This document shows positions 2,284-12,920 of a stretch of DNA of 12,920 nt, in pieces (the first letter of the stretch is position 1; each line of letters starts with the position of its first letter). The notes under the pieces were generated by a model that did no database searches, was not told where the DNA came from, and was given only the letters and a program-made list of their open reading frames with translations. The translations under genes and the position numbers were made by a program. Source of the DNA: a virus (taxonomy: Duplodnaviria > Heunggongvirae > Uroviricota > Caudoviricetes); the IMG/VR virus record IMGVR_UViG_2609459769_000019; one strand, written 5' to 3'.

Positions 2284-2460
2284 TCCGGCAGCATAAGCCG
2301 GTGTTTTTCGGGGCCGGTTTTGCGGGACTTCAGAAAGTGCTGACAGGGGAAAAATGAGAAAGGCGCTTCACGCAGATTTTAAAGCCCGTTAAATACAGGT
2401 TAGAAAATCACGACACGCGCCTGAAGAGGGTAAGGCAATGCGTTTGTATACCTTAAACCA
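2284..2460 (-). promoter_or_regulatory. G-I intergenic region: candidate late promoter for I; positional equivalent of the Mu central strong gyrase site
   Basis: One of only three sizeable non-coding gaps in the late region (177 bp); contains C-runs flanked by A/T runs (e.g. TTTTTCCCC on the coding strand); promoter role inferred from position. Confidence 0.3.
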
Positions 2461-2974: not shown

Positions 2975-3054
2975 GTCAGTGTACGCTTAACTGGTAAAGT
3001 CGGTGCCTGCCTCCGGGTGGATCATGTATGCGGGTTCGACCCCCGCCACTGACC
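2975..3054 (+). other. tRNA-like structural element (7-bp acceptor-like stem plus canonical T-arm) in the F-G intergenic region; not a complete tRNA
   Basis: GTCAGTG (2975-2981) pairs perfectly with CACTGAC (3047-3053); internal 5-bp stem GCGGG/CCCGC (3030-3034 / 3042-3046) closes a 7-nt loop TTCGACC (T-loop-like); I could not fold a convincing anticodon arm by hand and no CCA is encoded. Confidence 0.25.
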
Positions 3055-3055
3055 G

Positions 3056-4387
3056 TTAATCAATTTGTCCTTCCAGCACCTCAAGCATTCCGCCCCGGAT
3101 ATCCGATTTCAGCTTATCCATATTGATAACCCGGTAAGCATTCACAATCACATCCAGTTTGTCGGGCTGACGTTTCAGACTGTACGGTGCATTAACGGCA
3201 ATCTGCACACTGCCATCCTGATTTTCCACGATATACATCAGATTGTTGTGCCGTTTGTCCCACAGTACCGCTTTTGGCCTTGCCAGCATTGCCGGTAAGC
3301 GCCCGAAGTCCTCCGGCGTCAGAGCGATGCCGTCATTCTGATGTTTCACACTGTCCGCATGGAGCACATTTTTACCGCTCATCGCCAGCAGGCGGGCCGG
3401 TGGCGTTCCCGTCCGGCTTTCCACTGCCTGCGCAATGCTTTCAGTCATAAAGCCCAGCGTGCGGATATCGTTACCACCTCGCCGGGTCTGCATGATGTTT
3501 TTTGCCCAGATGCGGAACGCCAGCTGCCGCTCCGGGCTGTTGTTCATCTCCTGAACCACCATTTCCCGTAACGCCGGGCTTTTCACCTCGATCAGTTTGC
3601 GGATCAGCGCCTGGTCTGTGCCGAACGCTGCCGAGCCGGGGTTATATGACCAGCCCACATCCGGTGTCATGGTTCTGGTGCCATCTGAATATGTGGTCAC
3701 CGGCATTTCTCTGACTTCTCCGGTCTGTTTATCCACGCCAGCCTCAACATTGCGGGTGGAGAGATGATCCTCACCGGATGAAACGGATAACCCCATTGCA
3801 TCCAGACGGGCCTGAGACAATGGCCGCACACGGCAGCGGCAGTTCCAGCCATTGGGCGGGTAGTGTGTTTTCCAGAACGGATCGTCATAGCGGAATACCA
3901 GACCGTTAAGGGCGGAATGCGACGGGCGGGTACGGCTGTCCATGACCGCCACATACTGCCAGAACGGATGCGTGTCCGTGTTGTTCATCATCTGCGTGTA
4001 ACGCCCGGCATTGTAAGCCACACGGGTGTTCACGTTGTAAATCAGCGCCAGACGACGGGGACTGCCCAGCTGCACTTCTTCCGCGTTACCGTCGCTGTCC
4101 ACCACAATCTGCTTTCCCCACCATCCCAGCTTTTGCAGGCGTGGCGTCAGCGTGCGGATAAATGCTTTCTGTGAAATTCCCTCATCAATGGCCCGCTGCA
4201 CTTCGGCCTGTAACGTGGTCACCACATCCAGGCGTGCCGCTTTTGCTGCCGTGAATGAGCGGGCATGAACATCCGCGGCTGTTTCGAACCAGTTCCAGCT
4301 GATATGCGCCCCTTTGACACGGAAGTATGCTACCGCCTCTTTTGAGGGAAGCGTGGCGGCATAACCTAAATCAATCCCCTGTGTCAT
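3056..4387 (-). CDS. F: Head morphogenesis protein (Mu F-like, gp30 family), 443 aa
   Basis: ATG at 4387 overlapping the portal gene end by 17 nt; conserved WNCRCRV-type motif; position between portal and G as in Mu. Confidence 0.75.
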   Translation of the reverse strand: MTQGIDLGYAATLPSKEAVAYFRVKGAHISWNWFETAADVHARSFTAAKAARLDVVTTLQAEVQRAIDEGISQKAFIRTLTPRLQKLGWWGKQIVVDSDGNAEEVQLGSPRRLALIYNVNTRVAYNAGRYTQMMNNTDTHPFWQYVAVMDSRTRPSHSALNGLVFRYDDPFWKTHYPPNGWNCRCRVRPLSQARLDAMGLSVSSGEDHLSTRNVEAGVDKQTGEVREMPVTTYSDGTRTMTPDVGWSYNPGSAAFGTDQALIRKLIEVKSPALREMVVQEMNNSPERQLAFRIWAKNIMQTRRGGNDIRTLGFMTESIAQAVESRTGTPPARLLAMSGKNVLHADSVKHQNDGIALTPEDFGRLPAMLARPKAVLWDKRHNNLMYIVENQDGSVQIAVNAPYSLKRQPDKLDVIVNAYRVINMDKLKSDIRGGMLEVLEGQID

Positions 4388-9061: not shown

Positions 9062-9269
9062 GACCGGCCTCCATGATGTTCTGGCAGTTCACACAACGGA
9101 TGGCATCCGGCACGGCAACCAGACGGGCAGCCGGAATGTCACCCCCGCAGTCCGCGCATACACGCCTGCCCGGTGTCTCCGCCACCCGGCGCTTACGTGT
9201 CAGCCGGTCACAAAGGGCGCGTTCTGTTGCACGCTCCATGACTGCCTGAGCACAATCTGAATCATCCAT
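9042..9269 (-). CDS. TraR/DksA-family C4 zinc-finger protein, 75 aa
   Basis: ATG at 9269 preceded by AAGGAAAAAGG; CxxC...CxxC motif (CADCGG...CVNCQ); the longer track ORF (to 9335) lacks an RBS and overlaps the o-spanin. Confidence 0.65.
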   Translation of the reverse strand: MDDSDCAQAVMERATERALCDRLTRKRRVAETPGRRVCADCGGDIPAARLVAVPDAIRCVNCQNIMEAGHVGQHR

Positions 9270-9944: not shown

Positions 9945-10445
9945 TCAGACTTTCGGCAAGTCGTAGCGACATAACCATTCATCCGCCGAACGGCGGGCCT
10001 CAAGGCCGGGGAGTTTCACCCCCTTTGAATAAATCCAGCGGATATACTGCTTACAGGACGCGGGCATCTGTCCGGCATTGATAAGGCGCAGAAGCGTGGA
10101 GTTGCGGAAGTTCGTTTCACCGGCCCAGAAGATCCACGAAGCCAGCGCCACCGTCTGACCACGGGTAAGTGGCACCTGAACACGCCGGTCAATGGCCGCA
10201 AAGGCCCATTTCATGTCCTTTTCCAGCAGTTCCAGACATTCTTCATCGGTTTTTGTCATACCCGGTTTCACATCCGGGCCGGTATGGCCGTGGCAGATGG
10301 TGGGGGTGCCGGTGGGGTCGAGATACGTGGTGTTTTCTTTCCCTTCCCAGTAGCCGGTGTAGTGCGTGGCAATAGTGAACGTCCCGGCTCCGGCCAGAAC
10401 AAGGGCAATCAGCTTTTTACGCAGTGGCGCGGGGAGTTTTGGCAT
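9945..10445 (-). CDS. lys: Endolysin, T4-lysozyme-like (GH24) with N-terminal signal-anchor-release (SAR) segment, 166 aa
   Basis: ATG at 10445; N-terminal LIALVLAGAGTFTIATHY hydrophobic stretch after a basic N-terminus; catalytic E-x8-D-x5-T triad (EGKENTTYLDPTGTPT) followed by GHTG motif. Confidence 0.85.
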   Translation of the reverse strand: MPKLPAPLRKKLIALVLAGAGTFTIATHYTGYWEGKENTTYLDPTGTPTICHGHTGPDVKPGMTKTDEECLELLEKDMKWAFAAIDRRVQVPLTRGQTVALASWIFWAGETNFRNSTLLRLINAGQMPASCKQYIRWIYSKGVKLPGLEARRSADEWLCRYDLPKV

Positions 10446-10516
10446 TGTTACGCTGTCTCATGGTGTTCTCTGAGCCAGCGTAACCGTGGAAAAAAGGGGG
10501 CAGGATTTGCGGAATA
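10446..10516 (-). promoter_or_regulatory. Candidate activator-dependent late promoter upstream of the endolysin (Plys equivalent)
   Basis: 71-bp gap between the activator gene and lys; coding strand contains CCTGCCCCCTTTTTTCC; assignment by position only. Confidence 0.3.
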
Positions 10517-10939
10517 TCAGAAAAGCCGGGGCTGCGTGCGCTCCTGATGCAGGCGACGCTGGTTGCGGATAACGGAGTAAATCTGCGTCTCTGACATCTG
10601 GTAATGGCGGCGCAGGGTTTCAATTTTTTCACCCTGGCTCCAGCGGGAAAAAATCTCATTATTGCGCAGTTCGGTGAAAAGGGATTCACCGACCGGGAGA
10701 TAATAACCACGCCCGCCCATGTACCCGGCCTGTGCGGCCGCAACCTTACGGGCAAGCATTCCCGCCTGAGCAGATTCAATCCCCTGACGGTGCAGTTCAG
10801 CACTGATCACATCAACCAGGTCACGCAGCGTGCCGGGCCAGTTCTTTTTCAGCTCATCATCAGGAATATCATCCAGACGGTCAATCAGCGCGTGCAGCTG
10901 TTCGCTGTCACCAAACATGCTCATCTGTGTTTCAGCCAT
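10517..10939 (-). CDS. Mor/C-family transcriptional activator (140 aa; by size and position more likely the C-type late activator)
   Basis: ATG at 10939 with GGAGG 6 nt upstream; acidic N-terminus and basic C-terminal HTH-like region typical of Mor/C proteins; sits immediately upstream of lys. Confidence 0.75.
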   Translation of the reverse strand: MAETQMSMFGDSEQLHALIDRLDDIPDDELKKNWPGTLRDLVDVISAELHRQGIESAQAGMLARKVAAAQAGYMGGRGYYLPVGESLFTELRNNEIFSRWSQGEKIETLRRHYQMSETQIYSVIRNQRRLHQERTQPRLF

Positions 10940-10971
10940 ACCCGCCTCCGGTCATCATTACACAGGGCAAG

Positions 10972-11005
10972 TTTAAAATAAAAATCCCGCGCTGTGGCGG
11001 GATTT
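10972..11005 (-). terminator. Rho-independent terminator after the truncated transposase gene (possibly doubling as an activator-binding dyad)
   Basis: Minus-strand AAATCCCGC-CACAGC-GCGGGATTT hairpin (9-bp GC-rich stem, 6-nt loop; plus 10982-11005) followed by TTATTTT; starts 5 nt after the stop codon at 11012-11010. Confidence 0.55.
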
Positions 11006-11009
11006 GGGG

Positions 11010-11918
11010 TTAAAAAGGGGAGGATTCTTCATACAGCCTGCAAACGCGCTCATAACTCATCACTGTACGCGCTGACACCCGGCCTTTTTGTTTCACCACT
11101 TCCGGCAGTTTCTTCATTGCGCGGCGAATGGTGTCATAAGACGGCATGATATCGAGCATATAAGGCTCATCAGCGTGCCGGTACTGCCATTCAGCGACAA
11201 AATCCTCGTAAGCCTCGGTCATTGGTCGGCCGTTTGACTGGCGATACTGCGCCAGAAATTCGGGCAGCCAGTTAATATCTTCGGCTTTTATTTCCTGGCG
11301 CTTACCAGGTGCCAGCAAAAGCAGGCGTTCAGCGGCGTTCTGCGCCTTGTTAAAGGCTGCAATCCAGCGTTTCAGCGTGATTTCACTCAACGCACGGCTG
11401 TTTCCCTTTTTGGCGTTCGCCGTCTCAACCATTGCCACAATGCGCTCGTCCAGTTGCGAACGTGCCAGGTTGTCAACGATAAACCGGATAGCCTTCGCAC
11501 AGCTGAAACCAGGTTGTTGCGCGACTTTCAGAACTTCGCTGACGATCGCGATTCGTGCATCAGCCACCTGGCGCTGGTTTTCAGTCAGAGCATTAAGGCG
11601 TTCGACCATCAGTTGTGGTGATCCGCGATATGCCTCCACCGCATCAACCACGGCAGGCGAGCGTCTGGCCTTTGTCACCACTGGAGCCGGTGATTCATCG
11701 ACTTTTTGAGTCATCAGTTGCAGGGCGTAGCGTTCACGTAATGCCTGCTGCGTCACTTCAGGTAAACAGTCGATGCTGTATTCAGTTGCTTTAGAGCCTG
11801 AGCGACGACGGGAACAACAGCTTTTCCCTTGTACGTAACGTTGTAATGCCTGGCGAATACCTTTTGTTGTAGCAGGCATTCCGGGCGCGCCAATCAGTTC
11901 TTTTGCAATGACATACAT
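11010..11918 (-). CDS. Truncated Mu transposase A homologue: N-terminal DNA-binding domain only (302 aa), no DDE catalytic core
   Basis: ATG at 11918, 1 nt after the ner stop; N-terminus APGMPATTKGIRQALQRY...GSKATEYSIDCLPEVTQQALRER resembles the winged-helix enhancer-binding domain of MuA/Mu repressor as I remember it; ORF stops at about 300 aa against about 660 aa for full-length MuA; terminator follows directly. Confidence 0.55.
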   Translation of the reverse strand: MYVIAKELIGAPGMPATTKGIRQALQRYVQGKSCCSRRRSGSKATEYSIDCLPEVTQQALRERYALQLMTQKVDESPAPVVTKARRSPAVVDAVEAYRGSPQLMVERLNALTENQRQVADARIAIVSEVLKVAQQPGFSCAKAIRFIVDNLARSQLDERIVAMVETANAKKGNSRALSEITLKRWIAAFNKAQNAAERLLLLAPGKRQEIKAEDINWLPEFLAQYRQSNGRPMTEAYEDFVAEWQYRHADEPYMLDIMPSYDTIRRAMKKLPEVVKQKGRVSARTVMSYERVCRLYEESSPF

Positions 11919-11919
11919 A

Positions 11920-12168
11920 TCATGACGCCTTTCTCATATAGCTCTTAACCTGGTATCGACTGGGCCAGATTTCTTCAGGCGATACCCCAAGAGCATCAGC
12001 AATTATTTGCTGATACGGTCGGCAAGGAGTACGTAATACGCTTTTCAGCGAATCCCTGCTGTAACCAGCCTTTAAAGATAAAGAGCGCAGTGATAAGCCA
12101 GCCATGTGTAAGCGCGCCTTGATGATTTCAGGCGGCCAATCGTGATCTGAAACTTCTCTTCTACTCAT
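11920..12168 (-). CDS. ner: Ner-like DNA-binding regulator (82 aa)
   Basis: ATG at 12168 with AGAGGAAG upstream; ...LSLRSLSLKAGYSRDSLKSVL...QQIIADALGVSPEEIWPSRY matches the Mu Ner family signature (IIA.AL...P...WPSRY); divergent from the repressor gene. Confidence 0.85.
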   Translation of the reverse strand: MSRREVSDHDWPPEIIKARLHMAGLSLRSLSLKAGYSRDSLKSVLRTPCRPYQQIIADALGVSPEEIWPSRYQVKSYMRKAS

Positions 12169-12335
12169 ACTTCCTCTATTCTAAAAAGTTACCCGCGCGG
12201 ATATTCGTGCGGATATCTGTACGGGTAAATAATAGAACAAACAAAAGAACCAAATCAAGGTATTTTGTTCTTTTTATTCTTTGCGGTGTTTTTGTTATTA
12301 ATATCAATAAGATAAATAAAAAGGAACCTGAGAGC
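12169..12335. promoter_or_regulatory. Divergent immunity control region between ner and the repressor gene (candidate operators and promoters)
   Basis: AT-rich 167-bp spacer; tandem 12-bp direct repeat CGYGCGGATATY at 12194-12205 and 12206-12217, flanked by inverted TTACCCG (12189-12195) / CGGGTAA (12222-12228); second inverted repeat AGAACAAA (12234-12241) / TTTGTTCT (12264-12271); TAGAAT -10-like hexamer on the minus strand. Confidence 0.5.
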
Positions 12336-12920
12336 ATGAACATGAAAAACAGTTCTTTTCTCGACGAAGGAAAAGAACCAGTGATCGAACGGATTTTTCG
12401 TCTTGCAGAGCGTTACAAATCGAGAAGTGAGGCGGCTAGAGCATGGGGAATAAACGTTCAGACATTGCAGAACTACTACAAAAGGAGAAACAATCAGCCG
12501 CCACCACAACCAAGAAAGCACCATCTCCAGAACATTGCAGAAAGAGAACATGTATCTATGGAGTGGCTAGTCAATGGTTATGGTGATGAGCCAAGCATGA
12601 AAAAAGAACCAATTGAACAAACAAAAAGAACAAAAAAACAAAGAATTGATGATAGTGATTCCATCATCATGAGGGCGTGGGACTCGCTAACTTCATCTGA
12701 ACAAGAGATTTTGTCCAACTTATTGATCAGAAAAGGGGCCGAACTACTAACCGTTTTGCTTGATACAGATATTCAAAAACTGCACTCATTGAGCGGAGTC
12801 AAAAGAGCACTAGCATTGAGTCTACAAGAGTTACCCGATGATACTGTAAGAGAGATTTATGAAGAATGTGAAGCTAAGGTTAATCATTTAAATGTAACCC
12901 AGAAAAAGGCTGGTGCGTAA
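12336..12920 (+). CDS. Prophage repressor (194 aa): HTH N-terminal domain joined to a Mu c-like C-terminal domain
   Basis: ATG at 12336 (second ATG at 12342) preceded by AAGGAA; the track's longer ORF starts at a GTG at 12207 inside the operator region; N-terminus has a classical HTH (RSEAARAWGINVQTLQNY); C-terminal segment LLIRKGAELLTVLLDTDIQKLHSLSGVKRALALSLQELPDDTVREI resembles the Mu repressor C-terminal region from memory; gene is distinctly AT-rich. Confidence 0.65.
   Translation: MNMKNSSFLDEGKEPVIERIFRLAERYKSRSEAARAWGINVQTLQNYYKRRNNQPPPQPRKHHLQNIAEREHVSMEWLVNGYGDEPSMKKEPIEQTKRTKKQRIDDSDSIIMRAWDSLTSSEQEILSNLLIRKGAELLTVLLDTDIQKLHSLSGVKRALALSLQELPDDTVREIYEECEAKVNHLNVTQKKAGA

Follow-up and report, generated by a model that had tools for sequence, protein, structure and literature searches.

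The window (the whole stretch of DNA that was analysed, 12,920 nt long) is a defective, Sp18-type Mu-like prophage from which 7.85 kb have been deleted. On its early side are a repressor-like open reading frame (ORF), a ner-like gene and an ORF that fuses the beginning of a MuA-like transposase with the end of gemA; the fusion ORF retains the MuA N-terminal DNA-binding domain, and its stop codon (11012–11010) is gemA's own. A gap of 70 nt, which contains a hairpin, separates the fusion ORF from the gene of a 140-aa activator, and downstream of the activator gene lie the lysozyme, spanins, a TraR-like gene, gp27, terminase, portal and head genes. All genes flanking the hairpin are on the minus strand.

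12207–12920, plus strand: repressor-like ORF.
11920–12168, minus strand: ner-like gene.
11010–11918, minus strand: fusion ORF of 302 aa, consisting of the MuA-like transposase N-terminus (281 aa) and, in frame, the last 21 gemA codons.
11076–11080: deletion junction with a 5-bp overlap or repeat, CACCC; 7,851 bp are absent relative to FORC_069 (L002, 12677–20527).
10945–10949, minus strand: GGAGG, ribosome-binding site of the C-like gene (direct reading).
10517–10939, minus strand: gene of the 140-aa Mor/C-family activator, C-like and the sole family member in this phage type (Pfam, protein comparison and tblastn).

Intact relatives of this prophage occur commonly in E. coli. One of them, FORC_069, shares 99.9% identity with positions 10400–11080 of the window; for the Sp18 prophage of O157:H7 Sakai the identity is about 80%. 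The gene upstream of the gap in the intact relatives is gemA (Pfam GemA). Lost in the deletion are the C-terminal part of the transposase, gene B, most of gemA and the semi-essential early genes, and the early operon (Pe-ner-A-B-...-gemA) is thereby shortened here to ner and an A'::gemA' fusion. Among the 73 IMG/VR loci that we examined the junction is carried by one contig only (IMGVR_UViG_2609459799_000018), and no match spanning the junction was found in any complete E. coli genome.

A few observations concern other parts of the window. At the repressor-side end the match to FORC_069 and Sp18 is lost beyond about 12395 (window 12396–12920), which suggests a different immunity region at this end. 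The operator region (window 12190–12310) contains several palindromes and inverted repeats. There is also a tRNA-like element between the F-like and G-like head genes (window 2975–3054, plus strand, antisense to the late genes): it scores 31 bits with the Rfam tRNA model (cut-off 29) and PGAP annotates a 'tRNA-OTHER' at that spot in FORC_069, ARAGORN makes no prediction for it, and a related sequence is found in Sp18.

The minus strand of the gap carries a perfect 9-bp dyad (11005–10997 and 10990–10982; the arms are 100% complementary, with 6 nt between them) followed by a run of Ts:

11005–10997, minus strand: 5' arm of the terminator hairpin, AAATCCCGC (terminator scan, inverted-repeat search and folding).
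10996–10991, minus strand: loop of the hairpin, CACAGC.
10990–10982, minus strand: 3' arm of the hairpin, GCGGGATTT.
10972–10981, minus strand: T-rich tail TTATTTTAAA, the U-tract of the terminator (terminator scan).

The terminator scan of the minus strand reported the structure at 11005–10982 with 9 pairs (five of them G-C pairs), a loop of 6 and the tail listed above; the 3' arm of the hairpin itself ends in TTT. Folding a 40-nt RNA returned exactly this hairpin, at −13.5 kcal/mol, whereas shuffled sequences have a mean of −4.4 (z = −4.8; none of 200 shuffles folded equally well). Only two perfect inverted repeats of at least 9 nt with arms no more than 40 nt apart are present in the 12.9-kb window, and the hairpin dyad is one of them. 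The hairpin begins 5 nt past the TAA stop codon (11012–11010) of the upstream ORF. It is identical in FORC_069, has one different loop base in Sp18, and is found 3' of gemA in most of the relative groups examined (L037–L044, L054, Sp18, FORC_069 and CP55), the same arms being present in relatives with GemA identity down to about 50%. In L038, L041 and L043, where the hairpin beside the activator gene has other arms than the canonical ones, a hairpin still forms, in a different register. A count of pairs in a fixed register revealed no significant covariation of the hairpin (the score was reached in 62 out of 500 shuffles), so that the support for an RNA structure comes from the thermodynamics, the context and the alternative hairpins and not from compensatory changes. 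A search against Rfam gave no family matching the terminator element.

With a stable G+C-rich stem-loop, an adjacent 3' U-tract and a conserved placement downstream of a gene, the element is well supported as a textbook intrinsic (Rho-independent) terminator of the minus strand, and it is predicted to be a strong one. The earlier note had described the dyad and the T-tract at these positions as such a terminator and had suggested folding the RNA as a check; the positions are confirmed, and the terminator scan and the folding both bear the description out. Term-seq and dRNA-seq data of E. coli O157:H7 Sakai have been published (Sy et al. 2020, PMC7547250). All sequence hallmarks of a generic Rho-independent terminator are present in the window element; a generic terminator, however, needs no conservation of its arms, and here the arms are kept across phages whose neighbouring proteins are only 44–50% identical.

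The 140-aa protein encoded downstream of the hairpin belongs to the Mor/C family and is closer to C than to Mor. It matches Pfam family PF08765 over residues 33–139 with 107.4 bits (the curated cut-off is 24.9), and shares 40% identity (113 bits) with Mu C and 27% identity (56 bits) with Mu Mor; for comparison, Mu Mor and Mu C match each other with 77 bits. It is as long as C, and its gene lies, like that of C, immediately before the lysozyme gene; this agrees with the earlier supposition that this protein is the C homologue. The GAGG of its ribosome-binding site is kept in all rows of alignment A4 except two, which have CAGG.

It had further been proposed that the promoter of this gene depends on a Mor protein that is no longer encoded. 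The gene content of the relatives contradicts this. Using Mu Mor, Mu C and the window protein as queries, tblastn detected no more than one locus each in FORC_069 and in Sp18, over 24 kb that include the whole early region; weak hits in gemA and in a small gene after B (E = 0.02–0.08), considered as a possible second Mor-like gene, were taken as noise. One Mor/C-family gene was found in all non-Mu IMG/VR groups (the search covered the 2.5 kb upstream, with gemA within), among them phages whose protein is 64–73% identical to Mu C, and both a Mor and a C gene are found only in true Mu relatives (L056 and L076). Pfam searches of the deleted early genes detected no Mor domain; the matches were limited to GemA, Gp11_C and, in one protein, sub-threshold Myb/HTH hits. 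Since the intact relatives carry one Mor/C-family gene, the deletion took no Mor. The prophage is defective through the loss of transposition, replication and early genes, not through the loss of an activator; nothing regulatory appears to be missing at the hairpin junction, and the late-gene switch does not appear to be broken at the hairpin site.

The deleted protein with the sub-threshold Myb/HTH hits has 183 aa (L002, 14146–14697) and is labelled by PGAP as SANT/Myb-like or AsnC family; it is a candidate for an unrelated early regulator.

For the comparison of the gap among relatives we used the 73 IMG/VR loci and an alignment of 16 sequences. The IMG/VR scan supplied the useful relatives; scans of genome contigs gave no match when the query was a single protein, and only two Pasteurellaceae loci when it was an alignment. 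Between the window and Sp18, the block TTAACCCCAAATCCCGCCACA-CGCGGGATTTTTATTTTAAACTT (from the TTAA stop region through the hairpin and the T-run to AAACTT) is identical at 44 of 45 positions, and the one mismatch falls in the loop. In the C-like gene and the 3' end of gemA, which flank the block, identity is about 65–85%, or more narrowly about 75–80%, and the 20 nt beyond the block have diverged. The conserved block could come partly from recombination at the module boundary.

Nearly all non-Mu groups have the same module (an ATCCCGC(C)...GCGGGAT inverted repeat, a T-run and a TAnnnT hexamer) ahead of their single activator gene. The hexamer is always 7–9 nt after GGGA, and can be TAAACT, TATAGT, TATATT, TATACT or TATAAT depending on the group:

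Window and Sp18: TAAACT.
L037–L045: TATAGT or TATATT.
L047–L053: TATACT.
L054/L055: TATAAT (the full consensus).

TAAACT and the TATAGT/TATATT of L037–L045 occupy the same alignment columns; the hexamers of L047–L055 (TATACT/TATAAT) are 2 nt closer. This 2-nt difference among groups in the offset from the hairpin to the −10 speaks against the overlapping promoter proposed below. Across the 16 aligned sequences the T-run forms an invariant block (it is degenerate in L046). In L050 and L080 the hairpin is absent, and the T-run and the hexamer (TATACT or TATGCT) are kept, in ATTTTTTGTATACT and ATTTTTGTATGCT. Phages with genes inserted between gemA and the activator gene carry two copies of the hairpin: the copy after gemA has another tail, and it is the second copy, beside the C gene, that retains the T-run and the −10.

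The gemA/activator boundary is itself a hot spot for inserted accessory genes, some of them on the opposite strand, with a hairpin copy on each side (L005, 3500–4290; L021, 1774–2500; L023; L037–L044). Another locus, L016, was considered as a natural variant without the 5' arm and rejected: the loop of its hairpin is interrupted by an IS4-family element (980–2470, encoding a 445-aa transposase) whose insertion duplicated an 11-bp target, GCCACAGCGCG, so that L016 is uninformative on promoter requirements. A hairpin with the same arm (AAAAAATCCCGCC...GGCGGGA) is also found elsewhere in Sp18, between invertase-side genes (L081, 14478–14520), in the orientation of an opposite-strand terminator.

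From this pattern we infer two linked functions, a terminator of the early-operon end and a promoter of the activator gene (with the T-rich spacer and the −10 as its core), which would be merged in phages without inserts, the window included. The following promoter elements can be proposed in the window:

10970–10975, minus strand: TAAACT, the best candidate for the −10 of the C-like gene (kept in Sp18, in alignment columns shared with relatives).
10993–10998, minus strand: GCCACA, a weak −35-like hexamer (3/6), 17 bp upstream of TAAACT (direct reading).
10975–10980, minus strand: TATTTT, an alternative −10 (composite pattern match, see below, and direct reading).
10957–10962, minus strand: TGTAAT, the −10 of the earlier note (present only in the close group, at least 95% identity).

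TAAACT matches the consensus at four positions (out of six), with A at position 2 and T at position 6, and together with GCCACA at 7 of 12. GCCACA runs from the last bases of the 5' arm into the loop, and the ACA of the loop is kept in L037–L045 despite their different arms. The terminator thus probably overlaps a weak promoter with TAAACT as its −10, of the kind that normally needs help; the start predicted from this hexamer is about 10963 ± 2, which would probably put the dyad centre near −30 (about −30.5).

The match to the −35 and −10 consensus is weak, and a consensus promoter scan (which requires A at −10 position 2) found no promoter here, as would be expected if the element were a terminator only, the T-rich sequence being its tail and the C-like protein having no source other than partial read-through of the early transcript; a leaky terminator could by itself be enough to delay the late genes. 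We consider this explanation unlikely. L050 and L080 keep the T-run and TATACT or TATGCT even though they have no hairpin, and the hexamer of L054 and L055 is the full TATAAT consensus. In the insert phages the T-run and the hexamer remain beside the C gene, while the tail of the post-gemA hairpin differs. Moreover, some of the inserts between gemA and the C gene are on the opposite strand (e.g. in L021 and at 3841–4263 of L005), which makes simple read-through less likely as the sole source of the activator.

The earlier note had also proposed a promoter overlapping the terminator, with a different −10 and a different geometry: TGTAAT would set a transcription start near 10950, the dyad (centre 10993.5) would be a Mor-type site at −43.5, and with Mor deleted the late cascade would be blind unless Mor was supplied in trans. 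The overlapping promoter is what the comparative data indicate. TGTAAT is indeed present at 10962–10957 of the minus strand, and the arithmetic from it is right; the start, however, was assumed, and a conserved role as −10 does not hold: Sp18 has GGGAACGCGAGAA in its place, and all more distant groups are without TGTAAT although the hairpin is conserved there. TGTAAT also has a G where the A of a −10 belongs (position 2), and this A is nearly invariant in sigma-70 promoters. The geometry loses its basis without a conserved TGTAAT: the −43.5 position of a Mor-type 16-bp dyad arises only with this hexamer, while the conserved TAAACT gives about −30.5 (both from predicted starts).

The resemblance to Mu on which this model drew is real. 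In the Mu record (AF083977) Pm is annotated at 9163–9233 with a predicted terminator inside it (9179–9200). The Mor site of Mu is a 16-bp element from −51 to −36, i.e. with its centre at −43.5 (PMC4390567, PMC4287176), which is also where the C site is centred, and Mor- and C-dependent promoters have a −10 and no −35 (PMC4390567, PMC2582627); likewise, the candidate promoter of the window has a recognizable −10 without a −35 and overlaps the early terminator. An alignment by MAFFT, which had been suggested as a check, places the hairpins and T-runs of the window and Mu opposite each other and pairs CCTGTGTAATGATGACC of the window with CCTGTGATGAATAACC, where the Mu Pm transcript begins. With the Pm start placed at position 2225 of L003, based on −57G and −54A (PMC4390567), the −10 of Pm is TATCCT, the hairpin centre is at about −38, and the Mor element, AGTAAAGCCGGTTAAT, is made up of the terminator's 5' arm and loop; hence the dyad of the terminator and that of the activator are not the same element, even in Mu. 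Given that intact relatives have no second Mor/C-family gene and that none lies in the deleted segment, the model is largely refuted by gene content, and we regard it as very improbable.

The explanation that we favour, with moderate confidence, is that the hairpin and the T-tract end the early operon of this Sp18-type Mu-like phage and at the same time overlap a weak promoter with a poor −35, which drives the sole C-like activator. The T-tract would serve as promoter spacer, just upstream of or overlapping the −10, and the loop and the 3' arm would cover the −35 and spacer region. Early transcription would mostly halt at the hairpin, and slight read-through would yield the first C-like protein; the promoter would then boost expression, and the C-like protein would switch on the late promoters upstream of lys and the protease gene. 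The promoter activity, its start site and the identity of its activator are in this account deduced from sequence and its conservation.

Candidates for these late promoters share a box, and a similar sequence is found at the hairpin:

10477–10512, minus strand: late-promoter candidate upstream of the lysozyme gene, with box CCGCAAATCCTGCCCC (10512–10497), 14 nt and TACGCT (10482–10477).
2290–2325, minus strand: late-promoter candidate upstream of the protease/scaffold gene, with box CCGCAAAACCGGCCCC (2325–2310), 14 nt and TATGCT (2295–2290).
10994–11009, minus strand: CCCCAAATCCCGCCAC (5' flank and 5' arm of the hairpin), a possible site for the C-like activator; 13 of 16 positions match the late box.

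Downstream of the activator gene, the pattern CCRNAATCC, 20–21 nt, TAnnCT is found in all relative groups (Mu Plys has CCATAATCCCGC). The core AATCCCGC of the hairpin's 5' arm is identical to a stretch of Mu Plys. When both strands of the window, of the FORC_069 locus and of the whole of Sp18 were searched with a composite pattern (the box with at most two substitutions, 14–18 nt, TAnnnT), only three sites matched, namely the hairpin site and the two late promoters; this pattern was defined after seeing the data. The motif CAAATCCYGCC alone has three matches versus 0.73 expected, a number reached in 11 of 200 shuffles. We found no further late promoters with the box in the tail and mom region of Sp18, even at four substitutions, so the box rests on two promoters.

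Near the first of these, the window has a 24-nt imperfect inverted repeat (10437–10460 and 10471–10494, 79% complementary) that extends over the start codon of the lysozyme gene and the −10 of the lys promoter candidate; this repeat might be involved in the control of lysozyme translation or be a regulatory site.

A self-activated promoter of late type would give the hairpin site a specific role: the C-like protein would bind CCCCAAATCCCGCCAC and activate its own gene, and this feedback loop would replace the Mor step of Mu. The match to the late-promoter box, the restriction of the composite pattern to this site and the two late promoters, and the core shared with Mu Plys all point in this direction, as does a conservation of the arms far beyond the needs of a terminator. 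In L047, L048 and L054, the distance from AATCC to the −10 is 22 nt upstream of the activator gene versus 21 nt in their own late promoters, and a T-run precedes the −10 in both kinds of promoter. But the distance from AATCC to the conserved −10 is 24 nt in the window (where this −10 is TAAACT) and in the L040 group, as compared to 20 nt in the late promoters, and the closer fit (19 nt) is obtained only with TATTTT, which has no counterpart in the L040 group. Furthermore, the C proteins of L041–L045 are nearly identical to that of L040, yet different hairpin arms are found beside their C genes; L050 and L080 are without the arms; and the shared core is short and the pattern post hoc. We therefore consider self-activation possible but doubtful.

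A broader version, which we put forward as speculation and think improbable as a whole, is that one 24-bp element does three jobs in most Mor-less Mu-like phages, as RNA terminator, as site of the C activator and as insertion boundary. If it were true, the arms (ATCCCGC/GCGGGAT, with the AATCC core) would bind a single C-type activator, with positive feedback in place of the relay from Mor to C, and the element would mark the border where additional genes and insertion sequences come in, leaving a hairpin copy on each side.

Phage Mu is the standard textbook case of a transcription cascade in three steps, in which early genes lead to Mor, Mor to C and C to the late genes. Most of the Mu relatives sampled here, including those with activators 64–73% identical to Mu C, carry a C-type activator only, and in nearly all of these the activator gene lies behind the conserved terminator and −10 module. 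The first switch-on of a single activator could be due to terminator leak, to self-activation or to an unrelated early protein. A literature search found no paper on the terminator-promoter module of Mu-like phages with a single Mor/C gene.

The one-gene phages are among the closest known systems. Sp18 carries the same hairpin block, the prophage of the window is a deletion derivative, and the order of gemA, a single Mor/C gene and lys is shared by Sp18 and by SuMu, phiMhaMu2 and 3927AP2 of Pasteurellaceae; the single-activator layout has already been described for Pasteurellaceae phages, with the remark that a separate middle stage is lacking in such phages (PMC4553209). The late promoters of Mu (Plys, PI, PP and Pmom) are activated by C, and the activator of the window is likewise C-like; the layout of Mu Plys (..AWAATCC.., 20–21 nt, TAnnCT) is that of the lys and protease promoters of the window, and its core recurs in the 5' arm of the terminator. 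The hairpin site, which is putative, differs from these late promoters in that the spacing from its box to the conserved −10 is 4 nt longer than in the phage's own.

The Mu Pm/terminator region and the window element both have a G+C-rich hairpin and a T-run where the early operon ends, directly behind the gemA region, and an overlapping promoter (a candidate one in the window) that has a −10 without a usable −35 and leads to the C gene. They differ in several respects: Mu encodes Mor for Pm, whereas the phage type of the window has no Mor; the hairpin centre is at about −38 in Mu and at about −30 relative to the conserved −10 in the window; the arm sequences are unrelated (GCCGG versus TCCCGC); and three small genes precede C in Mu, whereas in the window the activator gene follows directly. 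The element is thus a variant of the Pm/terminator arrangement of Mu, located directly before the sole C-type activator.
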